A stretch of 64,000 nt of DNA from Escherichia phage WPEC5. The notes beneath the pieces were generated by a model. The model made no database searches and was not told the DNA's origin. It saw nothing but the letters and a program-made list of their open reading frames with translations. The translations under genes were made by a program, and so were the position numbers. Positions 12,900-15,368 of this stretch are shown here, one piece after another. Positions within the stretch are counted from its first letter, which is position 1; each line of letters opens with the position of its first letter. The DNA lies in the sequence record PV654397.1; one strand, 5' to 3'.

Positions 12900-12930
12900 T
12901 CCAGTACTATTATAGTACTGGATTTTTATT
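12900..12930. terminator. bidirectional terminator hairpin at strand switch
   Basis: TCCAGTACTATTATAGTACTGGA perfect palindrome + T-run between convergent genes. Confidence 0.65.
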
Positions 12931-13300
12931 ATAACATACGTTTTTTACGAATAGTATTGTGGATATTTTTTAAGTAGTTCACACCTTTACACAACCCATA
13001 AAATACACCAGCACATACACCAAATGCAGGTATCATACATGCAAACATCGTTATCAATTCCCACATCTCCATACCATCTTGATTCGGTCCAAGGTCAAAG
13101 ATAACAACCAAAACCAAACCCGTGATACTTAGCATATAATATGCCATAAAGATAATAAAAGAAACAATACCAACATCAGAGCGAACTGAATTTAGCATAT
13201 TATATACTGGGGTTACACAGAAGTAATACAATAACCAAATCAAAGAACCTAAACTAAACACAATAATAGTAATGATTGAAAATATTTCACGATAACTCAT
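12929..13300 (-). CDS. small membrane protein, paralog cluster 1 (1/7)
   Basis: several long hydrophobic segments; head-to-tail operon of seven similar-sized ORFs. Confidence 0.65.
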   Translation of the reverse strand: MSYREIFSIITIIVFSLGSLIWLLYYFCVTPVYNMLNSVRSDVGIVSFIIFMAYYMLSITGLVLVVIFDLGPNQDGMEMWELITMFACMIPAFGVCAGVFYGLCKGVNYLKNIHNTIRKKRML

Positions 13301-13301
13301 T

Positions 13302-13664
13302 TTAGTCCCTCGTACCTAAACGATCATGGATTTCGGAAATCTTATGATACAACCACGCCATCAACTCAACTGATGCACAGAGAATAACCACACACAGTGT
13401 TAGTGAACATATCATAATACCAAATGTTATAAAATTCAAACTCGATGTTAATAATGCAACCAGCATTAGAATAAAACCAAAATTGAATGCTGTACTCAAT
13501 ACAGTATATGCTGGACTATATCTCCTTTGTATTACATCATATATATTTGATAATGGTCGCTTATGGAAGTACTTCCCAATGCACACGAATGCATTCAGTG
13601 AGAAGATAAATGTATACGCCATTACCATTAATTGACCAATAAAAGATAATTCAATATTATTCAT
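13302..13664 (-). CDS. small membrane protein, paralog cluster 1 (2/7)
   Basis: hydrophobic helices; abuts neighbours. Confidence 0.65.
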   Translation of the reverse strand: MNNIELSFIGQLMVMAYTFIFSLNAFVCIGKYFHKRPLSNIYDVIQRRYSPAYTVLSTAFNFGFILMLVALLTSSLNFITFGIMICSLTLCVVILCASVELMAWLYHKISEIHDRLGTRD

Positions 13665-13665
13665 G

Positions 13666-14037
13666 TTATCCTCGTTTGCGGTATTTGATGCTTTGGTGCA
13701 TTCTCTGAAAATGTGGAACTAATACATATTGTACGGTTTGCCAAATTACCATCAGATTATGGACAGCACCACCGAGTAGACCAAACACTACACAGATAAT
13801 TGCCAGTACTGGATCACCATCTACCATACCCCATTTGAATATATGTAAAATCCATACAGTGATAAGTAGTAATAAACTAATCCAATACGTAGTAAAAAAT
13901 CCCGCATGTAATTCATAATCATCAGCAATTTCATCGTATACGGTTTCCAAGAAGGATACACAGAAGAACTTACCAATAATAACAATTGTACTAATAAACA
14001 ACATAGAAGTTAATATAATAAGTGCAATTTCCATCAC
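13666..14037 (-). CDS. small membrane protein, paralog cluster 1 (3/7)
   Basis: hydrophobic helices; basic C-terminal tail. Confidence 0.65.
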   Translation of the reverse strand: MMEIALIILTSMLFISTIVIIGKFFCVSFLETVYDEIADDYELHAGFFTTYWISLLLLITVWILHIFKWGMVDGDPVLAIICVVFGLLGGAVHNLMVIWQTVQYVLVPHFQRMHQSIKYRKRG

Positions 14038-14348
14038 ATCCCTCGTTTACGCTTTTGATTGCGTCTAAATTCGGTTAGCCCACGACTAATCGGTGGCATC
14101 AGACTACATAAAAAAATAACAGTTGTTGGTAATAACATGAAGTCAATCATTGCTGTATTAACAGGTGGATCACATACCAAATAATACAAACAAGTAATAC
14201 TAATTATGGTTGACCCAATAAAAGGAATACAAAATTCTTTTATCTGTTTTTCAACATAATCAAACATCTTCAATACAAATAAAAATCCAACCCAACACAT
14301 AATAAAATAGAATGAATAAAGCGTGTAAATCAATGTTACGATATCCAT
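14034..14348 (-). CDS. small membrane protein, paralog cluster 1 (4/7)
   Basis: hydrophobic helices; basic tail RRNQKRKRG; 4-nt overlap with neighbour. Confidence 0.65.
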   Translation of the reverse strand: MDIVTLIYTLYSFYFIMCWVGFLFVLKMFDYVEKQIKEFCIPFIGSTIISITCLYYLVCDPPVNTAMIDFMLLPTTVIFLCSLMPPISRGLTEFRRNQKRKRGM

Positions 14349-14686
14349 TAGTACCTCGCATCAGGAACTTTAGCACGTAATTTATGAACGGCTGGGATCA
14401 ACAACAAACTTACATATGCAATAGTTGAACCCCAATAGAATACTAATATAATTGGTTCACCATTAGAACGTAAACCTCTACTAATCATTGAGTAGTGAAT
14501 AATAGGCATAAACATCGCCATAAAAAACCATGCGTGTAATTTTAATTGCAGCATGTTATCAGAGATGAATACTGAAATTGGTCGTTTGAAGAACCACATC
14601 AGAAAGTAGAACCCAGCACTAACAATATAGTACATAGTACTAACTTTCATATACCACGGCATTAAGTGTAAAAAATATTCCATCAT
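14348..14686 (-). CDS. small membrane protein, paralog cluster 1 (5/7)
   Basis: hydrophobic helices; overlapping stop/start. Confidence 0.65.
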   Translation of the reverse strand: MMEYFLHLMPWYMKVSTMYYIVSAGFYFLMWFFKRPISVFISDNMLQLKLHAWFFMAMFMPIIHYSMISRGLRSNGEPIILVFYWGSTIAYVSLLLIPAVHKLRAKVPDARY

Positions 14687-15030
14687 TCCTCCGGTATCTT
14701 GTTTCGAAGTTCAATCATAACACAACAAAGTTTAATGATCAAGTAAAAAACTACACATATCATACCTATGGTTCCATAAACGACTGAAAAAGCTGGTAGT
14801 GCTTTTCCGGCGAGAACAGCCACAACACATGCTATAAATGTTGATGCAAACAATGATTGATTAATGAAAGAATTCATAAAATCTTCACCATTACGCTTAT
14901 AGAATTGTCGTTTAAAATACCATCCTAGAAACATAACTACCCAAAATGTTACATAACCTGTTAGAATAATCCCTGCAAGTGAATGTGCGACAGGACTACT
15001 CCTTAAAAACTCAAGATAAGCTTCAATCAT
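14683..15030 (-). CDS. small membrane protein, paralog cluster 1 (6/7)
   Basis: hydrophobic helices; C-terminal LRNKIPEE motif. Confidence 0.65.
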   Translation of the reverse strand: MIEAYLEFLRSSPVAHSLAGIILTGYVTFWVVMFLGWYFKRQFYKRNGEDFMNSFINQSLFASTFIACVVAVLAGKALPAFSVVYGTIGMICVVFYLIIKLCCVMIELRNKIPEE

Positions 15031-15368
15031 TAGAAGTCTCCACGAATTTTTTCTCTACCATTAATGATGAGATTAAACAAGTATATCAGCACCCAAATTA
15101 GTAATCCAAGGAATACAATATATTGTGATATTGAGTTCAACTGTGGATTAGCACAATAAATTAAGTGTGCGATAAGACCAACAATTGCAAACATACCTTG
15201 GATAATAGTGAAAAGAAGTAGTGAAATGTTTCCATCAGGATACAGTTTGAAAACGATTTTCTTTTTAAAATACCATAGTACTACAACTAGTGCATGATAA
15301 AAGAAAAAACCAAACAGATAAATCAAAGTAATACTAAGCATTGTATCTGAATTAAAAAACTCAAGCAT
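15030..15368 (-). CDS. small membrane protein, paralog cluster 1 (7/7)
   Basis: hydrophobic helices; C-terminal GREKIRGDF. Confidence 0.65.
   Translation of the reverse strand: MLEFFNSDTMLSITLIYLFGFFFYHALVVVLWYFKKKIVFKLYPDGNISLLLFTIIQGMFAIVGLIAHLIYCANPQLNSISQYIVFLGLLIWVLIYLFNLIINGREKIRGDF

Follow-up and report, generated by a model that had tools for sequence, protein, structure and literature searches.

Within a 64,000-nucleotide (nt) stretch of Escherichia phage WPEC5 (PV654397.1), referred to here as the window, seven consecutive small genes, m1 to m7, encode three-helix proteins of the inner membrane, about 105-125 amino acids (aa) long, that profile comparison identifies as very diverged paralogues belonging to a single clade-specific family. 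The genes form an array behind a gene for an NrdC.10-like ATPase. New here are the unification of the family, its signature and fold, a second cluster of members, and the ATPase-linked module. The shown and predicted parts of this account, taken jointly, are held with high confidence. The best explanation as a whole, which includes an inferred exclusion or anti-defence function, is tentative.

The original prediction had placed seven consecutive open reading frames (ORFs) of 104-123 aa at 12929-15368, and the ORF list gives exactly seven. It named no strand; all seven genes lie head-to-tail on the minus strand:

15030-15368, minus strand: m1, 112 aa, three transmembrane (TM) helices; phrog_19454; a GGAGA Shine-Dalgarno sequence lies upstream.
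14683-15030, minus strand: m2, 115 aa, three TM helices, C-terminus LRNKIPEE; phrog_19046.
14348-14686, minus strand: m3, 112 aa (111 if the second Met is the start), three aromatic-rich helices; phrog_27396.
14034-14348, minus strand: m4, 104 aa, three TM helices, tail RRNQKRKRGM; phrog_33258.
13666-14037, minus strand: m5, 123 aa, IGKFFCV motif, the best-conserved paralogue type; phrog_26405.
13302-13664, minus strand: m6, 120 aa, three TM helices; without a PHROG family of its own.
12929-13300, minus strand: m7, 123 aa, three TM helices, last gene of the array; phrog_27618.

The length of m5 is counted from a GTG codon; the ATG one codon on, which is the start annotated in relatives, gives 122 aa. 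Hydrophobic helices had been noted in all seven proteins, and Kyte-Doolittle profiles show three TM-length peaks in six of them. The remaining one, m3, has a single strong peak, but AlphaFold still gives it three long helices. The C-terminal tails had been described as basic or charged, and the net charges of the last 15 residues are +1, -1, +3, +5, +5, 0, and +5 from m1 to m7.

The genes are packed very tightly. The junctions from m1 to m7 read TAATG, ATGA, TAATG, GTGA/TGATG, TAAcATG, and TAAaATG; stops and starts overlap in four of the six, in line with the first description, and the other two are 1-nt spacers. Junctions of at most 1 nt thus make up six of six in the array, whereas their share among the window's other leftward junctions, 103 in number, is 36%. 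GGAG/GAGG Shine-Dalgarno sequences are embedded in the final codons of each upstream array gene, and part of the charged tails (PEE, RKRG, TRD) is therefore doubly constrained. The tail of m7 is also basic (IRKKRML), although no cistron follows it. From this arrangement, m1-m7 are probably translationally coupled.

The claim that the seven proteins are paralogous is borne out, but at the profile level only, by hhalign comparisons and by two motifs common to all. Pairwise BLASTP is marginal: the best pair, m1-m2, has an E-value of 1e-3 when only the seven sequences are searched, with 25% of residues identical along 114 aa. From the orthologous arrays of 121Q, JNE01, A4, and Klebsiella phage RaK2 (genus Alcyoneusvirus), a separate profile was made for each array position, and the profiles were compared all against all with hhalign. 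As a control, 49 comparisons were run with reversed profiles, which keep the composition and hydrophobic spacing. Control scores reached at most 22.7, with a median of 12.8. This ceiling is exceeded by twelve of the 21 real pairs, all in collinear register and most as long alignments: m2-m3 (61.1), m5-m6 (40.4), m2-m4 (39.6), m5-m7 (39.5), m6-m7 (33.2), m3-m5 (30.7), m1-m2 (30.2), m2-m6 (30.0), m3-m6 (26.3), m4-m5 (24.4), m4-m6 (24.3), and m1-m3 (23.3). These twelve links join all seven proteins into one graph, and cross-matches between the per-position hidden Markov models (HMMs) agree with them. The similarity among m1-m7 that an alignment had been proposed to check is thus seen in the form of profile matches and shared motifs.

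A pooled superfamily HMM was run against the 264 window ORFs of at least 50 aa. It recovers m1-m7 at E-values of 1e-22 to 1e-28 and matches only ten ORFs in total, the other three lying at 23150-24185. Six other small three-TM ORFs in the window, starting at 21404, 27532, 29584, 32128, 42638, and 43060, are not matched by it. Hydrophobic composition as the source of the similarity was rejected on the strength of these six unscored ORFs and of the reversed-profile controls.

The window belongs to a jumbo coliphage of the genus Asteriusvirus (121Q/PBECO4-type), whose relatives are jumbo myoviruses of about 350-385 kb. The 4.3-kb region under study is 98% identical to Escherichia phages fEgEco12, EC.P1, TH47, and vB_Ec-M-J, and 85-87% identical to 121Q, PBECO4, and phAPEC6. 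Orthologues of m1-m7 are annotated in about 35 related genomes. Relative to 121Q, the ratio of nonsynonymous to synonymous substitution rates (dN/dS) is 0.11-0.39 for the seven membrane genes and 0.03 for the ATPase. m1-m7 are genuine, constrained genes, yet fast-evolving; the possibility that they are chance ORFs was rejected because of purifying selection and conservation. A literature search found no description of the three-helix family, and its genes are deposited as hypothetical proteins.

The signature of the family was derived from an alignment of 76 sequences, with positions given in m5 numbering. Phe25 is present in 76 of 76 sequences, position 114 is His or Arg in all 76 (58 and 18, respectively), and position 117 is Ile, Leu, or Met in 69. 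Further conserved columns are F/Y24, K/R120-121, G22, K23, and Y34-D35. The signature thus has two parts, a GKFF motif following TM1, with its invariant Phe, and a C-terminal helix with [H/R]xx[I/L]xx[K/R][K/R], and its motifs are visible in all seven array proteins of the window.

An AlphaFold2 model of m5 based on the same alignment has a mean predicted local distance difference test (pLDDT) score of 96.9 and a predicted template modelling (pTM) score of 0.82. It comprises a helix at 2-22 (TM1), a loop helix at 28-39 after GKFFC, a helix at 41-67 (TM2), a tight turn, and a single continuous helix at 77-122 that forms both TM3 and the C-terminal tail. The model of m3 (pLDDT 79.8) has helices at 2-32, 45-69, and 77-95. 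The TM topology check that had been suggested, carried out with Kyte-Doolittle profiles and the models of m5 and m3, therefore gives three helices in the array proteins. Searches with the m5 model using Foldseek returned nothing at E below 1 in the PDB, and only CBB and 121Q relatives, at E above 0.4, in BFVD. Against these two databases, the fold is without an informative known relative.

Lys and Arg residues are unevenly distributed among the 76 members, averaging 0.4 per sequence at the N-terminus, 2.6 in loop 1, 0.3 in loop 2, and 5.2 in the C-terminal tail. By the positive-inside rule, each protein is therefore predicted to insert into the inner membrane with its N-terminus outside and its C-terminus inside (N-out/C-in). 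This topology would place the residues conserved across the family all on the cytoplasmic face. They are predicted to form a shared juxtamembrane module made up of G-K-F-F after TM1, Y-D in the loop helix, and a stripe of L/F..H/R..I..K/R-K/R in the C-terminal helix, whose positions 106, 110, 114, 117, and 120-121 would fall on one helix face, judging by their spacing. The surfaces of the TM helices and of the periplasmic turn are predicted to be paralogue-specific.

The three further matches of the superfamily HMM form a second cluster at 23150-24185 on the minus strand (E 1e-8, 1e-6, and 1e-10). It consists of three adjacent family members:

23847-24185, minus strand: first gene of the second cluster.
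23496-23843, minus strand: second gene.
23150-23518, minus strand: third gene, which probably starts at 23494, as in the phAPEC6 annotation.

All three end in an LR(N/D)K(I/L/M)P-type sequence, the LRNKIPE type also found in m2 and m3. The cluster is part of a separate early-type unit whose promoter lies upstream at 24922-24951, and it is present in phAPEC6 as gp028c, gp029c, and one unannotated ORF. The genome thus carries at least ten copies of the family, seven in the array and three in the second cluster. The six unscored three-TM ORFs (78-145 aa; 21404-21655, 27532-27795, 29584-29820, 32128-32511, and an adjacent pair at 42638-43497, all on the minus strand) may be further, unrelated small membrane-protein genes of the early region.

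The array shares its strand and its apparent promoter with the ATPase gene. The elements of this unit, in the order of transcription, are the following:

16235-16264, minus strand: sigma-70 promoter TTGACT-18-TATAAT (11/12, with a TG extension), 29 nt upstream of the ATPase start.
15436-16206, minus strand: NrdC.10-like P-loop/AAA ATPase, 256 aa, first gene of the unit, with AAA-type Pfam matches.
15401-15420, minus strand: hairpin GTACTAC-catagt-GTAGTAC with a 7-bp stem, in the 67-nt gap between the ATPase gene and m1.
12898-12924, both strands: bidirectional terminator hairpin with a 12-bp stem (AATCCAGTACTAT..ATAGTACTGGATT), after m7 and shared with a convergent RCC1-like gene.

The promoter is the likely start of the transcription unit. 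Since a sigma-70 promoter precedes the ATPase gene, no promoter of 11/12 or better was found inside the array in a scan of the window, and a strong terminator follows m7, the ATPase gene and m1-m7 look like one early unit, running from 16264 to 12898 and transcribed by the host RNA polymerase. Together with the tight junctions, these features agree with the operon that the original prediction had described. A weak promoter-like site at 15398-15426 (9/12) overlaps the hairpin in the ATPase-m1 gap. This hairpin, the terminator, and a third hairpin at 11015-11033 share a (C)CAGTACT...AGTACTG(G) or GTACTAC...GTAGTAC core, which points to a family of terminator or processing stem-loops specific to the phage.

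Near-consensus sigma-70 promoters (at least 11/12) are distributed very unequally in the window: the minus strand has 31 of them, the plus strand a single one. The majority are intergenic and lie 27-50 nt upstream of small leftward genes, the ATPase gene included; examples are found at 16264-16235, 18059-18030, 22501-22474, 24951-24922, 37677-37650, and 58615-58588. This pattern marks 13-64 kb as a putative large early region transcribed by the host RNA polymerase. No T4-type late promoter (TATAAATA) was found between 11 and 25 kb. No transcriptome for the genus Asteriusvirus turned up in the literature searched.

This setting bears on the regulation of lysis, one of the functions first suggested for the array and now disfavoured. 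The proteins would then be class I holin-like or antiholin-like proteins that time or regulate lysis. With 104-123 aa, three TM helices, a predicted N-out/C-in topology, and a basic C-terminal tail, they match the textbook class I layout; moreover, the endolysin of the clade has an N-terminal TM domain, and the CBB paper names no holin (PMC5259590). However, the promoter is of the early type and no late promoter was seen nearby. The array is flanked by the ATPase and RCC1-like genes and is not beside the endolysin gene, which in 121Q is gp532, compared with gp224-232 for the array (PMC5259590). No holin Pfam or PHROG family is matched by m1-m7 or by any of the 76 members, and seven to eleven copies would be unprecedented for holins. 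Endolysins of the signal-anchor-release type, for their part, normally pair with pinholins that have two TM segments. A holin-like role is accordingly very improbable.

On the other side of the terminator, an array of genes with RCC1 repeats (beta-propeller), comprising about eleven paralogues of about 370-396 aa, occupies 719-12893 on the plus strand and converges on the membrane-protein operon. The original prediction had placed the small genes next to a variable virion-protein array, and this is confirmed by the adjacent RCC1-like paralogues, six of whose orthologues were detected in virions of phAPEC6 (PMC7247149, Table 1). The arrangement could mean that the small proteins act on the membrane as virion or ejection proteins, entering the cell together with the DNA and functionally tied to the RCC1-like array. 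None of gp011c-gp018c was detected in the phAPEC6 virion proteome (PMC7247149), which is a weak negative, as small hydrophobic proteins are hard to detect. The membrane-protein genes also lie on the strand opposite to the RCC1 array, in a separate early-type unit, and in RaK2 and A4 they are not next to RCC1 genes at all. Delivery with the virion is the least credible of the alternatives considered and hardly to be expected.

Two further features of the neighbourhood were observed. Compared with 121Q, the window has one extra RCC1 gene (11769-12893) between m7 and the gp233-like gene. Upstream of the promoter, 16600-17600 contains dense direct and inverted repeats of 70-84 nt with 96-100% identity (for example, 16784-16860 and 17135-17211, or 16781-16858 and 16899-16976), and its ORFs on both strands carry a repeated peptide module, Y.N..TKV.I.DP.[FY]GEF. 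Relatives have at this site a homing or HNH endonuclease with tandem copies of the same module. The region resembles either the scrambled remains of an endonuclease gene or an artefact of assembly.

The ATPase itself belongs to a widespread group. It matches phrog_1250 at E 7e-103 and is 37-38% identical, over 94-96% of its length, to the NrdC.10 proteins of T4-like phages, among them one that carries the annotation NrdC.10. Its translation carries a Walker A motif (GAPGVGKT) and a Walker B-like motif (VLVLDDMD), and homologues occur in 1309 phage records. In many T4-like records the NrdC.10-type ATPase goes under the name "thioredoxin", and in CRJP21 the membrane genes are entered as "regulator of chromosome condensation"; both names look like annotation carry-over from neighbouring genes.

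The three-helix family is small and appears to be confined to RaK2/121Q-type jumbo phages. A profile search over 1.84 billion representative proteins (E <= 1e-3) found only 70 clusters, nearly all of 99-130 aa, and the 17 full-length ones inspected carry the family motifs. A scan of IMG/VR with m5-type sequences recovered only 121Q and RaK2. The ATPase gene is followed by an array of the family in every lineage examined:

Window: seven family copies after the ATPase.
Phage A4: seven copies after the ATPase.
121Q: eight copies after the ATPase, one of them frameshifted.
JNE01: eight copies after the ATPase.
RaK2: eight copies after the ATPase.
Erwinia phage Hallingskeid: ten copies and one borderline copy after the ATPase.
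L010, an uncultured 362-kb contig: four copies after the ATPase, three found by HMM and the fourth resembling RaK2 ORF316 by eye.

The ATPase of the L010 contig is 59% identical to that of the window. The comparison with related phages that had been called for therefore finds the array kept across genera, with 4 to 11 copies. It is absent beside NrdC.10 in one T4-like and one PA5oct-like phage, and because the PA5oct-like phage lacks the array, the PA5oct RNA sequencing data are unusable for timing. The gene after the array differs among the phages. In A4 it encodes a lipoprotein-like YgiB homologue (locus 7136-7687; Pfam DUF1190, E 4e-32), and in RaK2 a YgiB-like protein (ORF317, locus 7482-8078), judged so solely by its resemblance to the A4 protein. 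The window has no equivalent at this position.

Conservation and turnover are both apparent in the array. From Asteriusvirus to RaK2, the seven types keep one-to-one orthologues and the order m1-m7. Amino-acid identity to 121Q ranges from 96% for the ATPase down to 63% for m7, which is the most divergent between subclades. Tandem duplication, which had been proposed for the seven genes, is seen directly in relatives: gp224 and gp225 of 121Q are both of the m1 type, JNE01 carries two m4-type genes, and ORF309 and ORF310 of RaK2 are both of the m2 type. The Erwinia phage has a different make-up, with five m1/m2-like, two m5-like, and one clear m6-like copy. Alleles are exchanged as well. Compared with the nearest relative, vB_Ec-M-J, every gene has 98-99.5% nt identity except m2, which has 91.4%; its allele is 96.0% identical to that of SHEFM2K, a phage that is otherwise just 70-95% identical across the block. 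Single cistrons are therefore exchanged by recombination. The m4 orthologue of 121Q (gp228/gp229, locus 4139-4454) is frameshifted into two annotated ORFs and is either a pseudogene or a sequencing error. The family is predicted to evolve by birth and death, that is, by tandem duplication, loss, and allele exchange.

The favoured reading is an early role in modifying the envelope. Shortly after infection, the proteins would take up positions in the inner membrane of the host and change the envelope, thereby protecting the long cycle of a jumbo phage. In its most likely form, the paralogues would be a battery of superinfection-exclusion or anti-defence factors, each with a divergent membrane and periplasmic surface aimed at a different target and all built on a common cytoplasmic scaffold. 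This role is favoured because of the predicted timing, the absence from virions, the flux in copy number, the exchange of alleles, and the paralogue-specific outer surfaces. Superinfection exclusion or immunity, which the original prediction had put forward, is plausible. Several points weigh against it. The early timing is inferred from promoter sequence alone, and no homology in PADLOC, Pfam, or NCBIfam ties the family to exclusion or anti-defence. Whole-gene dN/dS values are below 1 and give no arms-race signal at that resolution. The residues with the strongest conservation occur in every paralogue and line up as a heptad-like stripe, which would fit co-assembly or a common partner at least equally well, and one-to-one orthologues in a kept order, with junctions of at most 1 nt, are typical of subunits made in a fixed ratio.

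The last two points lead to the main alternative reading, in which the paralogues would assemble into a single hetero-oligomeric complex of the inner membrane, such as a channel, scaffold, or membrane anchor, joined through the cytoplasmic helix stripe and possibly working with the ATPase. Besides the gene order kept between genera, the unusually tight junctions, and the shared helix face, the invariant adjacency of ATPase and array in all lineages examined argues for such a complex. A fixed assembly is harder to reconcile with a copy number of 4-11 and a different paralogue composition in the Erwinia phage, with the frameshifted m4 that 121Q tolerates, and with an m2 allele that can be exchanged alone. 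In addition, no ATPase gene accompanies the second three-gene cluster, 8 kb from the array, and about 1300 phages, T4-like and PA5oct-like ones among them, have NrdC.10 but no such array. A hetero-oligomeric complex is therefore possible but on the unlikely side. A bolder form of the idea, a new membrane machine of RaK2/121Q-type phages in which the three-helix paralogues would form a hetero-oligomeric ring or channel through the helix stripe and the ATPase would power or organize it, is improbable. Its task might be, for example, to anchor or organize the replicating genome at the membrane or to control traffic across the membrane. A substantial share of the probability remains with some other membrane function, outside the early envelope-modifying role favoured here and the alternatives described above.

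Beyond the original prediction, the analysis adds the linked NrdC.10-like ATPase, the second cluster of three genes, and the conservation of the module across genera. Six or seven "hypothetical" database families collapse into one superfamily with a clear signature, a fold predicted with high confidence, a predicted topology, and ten copies per genome. The module is conserved in at least three jumbo-phage lineages, namely Asteriusvirus, Alcyoneusvirus, and an Erwinia jumbo phage, and provides a first contextual clue for the widespread, unstudied NrdC.10 ATPase. Uncharacterized small membrane proteins take up much of the early region in large virulent phages, and the family offers a defined set of targets and point mutants (the invariant Phe and the His/Arg) for asking how a jumbo phage changes the inner membrane early in infection. 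If an exclusion or anti-defence function were true, it would bear on the design of phage cocktails, as Asteriusviruses are being promoted for therapy.

Known families and systems resemble the module only in part. Pfam, NCBIfam, and PADLOC give only sub-threshold hydrophobic noise for the array proteins. Six of the seven are full-length PHROG members (E 1e-47 to 1e-60), and there are additional, weaker matches of m2 (6e-6) and m4 (0.011) to phrog_16874 ("membrane protein", moron/host takeover category). In PHROGs these six fall into six separate families of "unknown function" and m6 has none, whereas here they form one superfamily that includes three more genes. T4 NrdC.10 is a conserved AAA-like ATPase of T4-like phages. 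Compared with that type, the jumbo-phage ATPase lacks the first approximately 70 profile residues and covers positions 77-326 of the 327 in phrog_1250, and the RaK2/121Q clade is the only one in which the membrane-protein array follows it.

Class I holins such as lambda S105 are proteins of about 105-125 aa with three TM helices, an N-out/C-in topology, and a basic C-terminal tail. The family agrees with them in size, number of TM helices, predicted topology, and charged tail, features that are generic to many small membrane proteins. It differs in being multi-copy, in its early-type promoter, and in its location outside the lysis cassette. The superinfection-exclusion proteins Imm and Sp of T4 are small, early inner-membrane proteins with one or two TM segments, each present in a single copy. 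No Imm- or Sp-type Pfam family is among the matches of any of the 76 members. The likeness would lie in small size together with an inner-membrane location and early synthesis in a large virulent coliphage, the last two being predictions for the family, and a role of the Imm and Sp kind is the one favoured here. Unlike Imm and Sp, the family combines three TM helices with a conserved cytoplasmic module and is present in seven to eleven copies.

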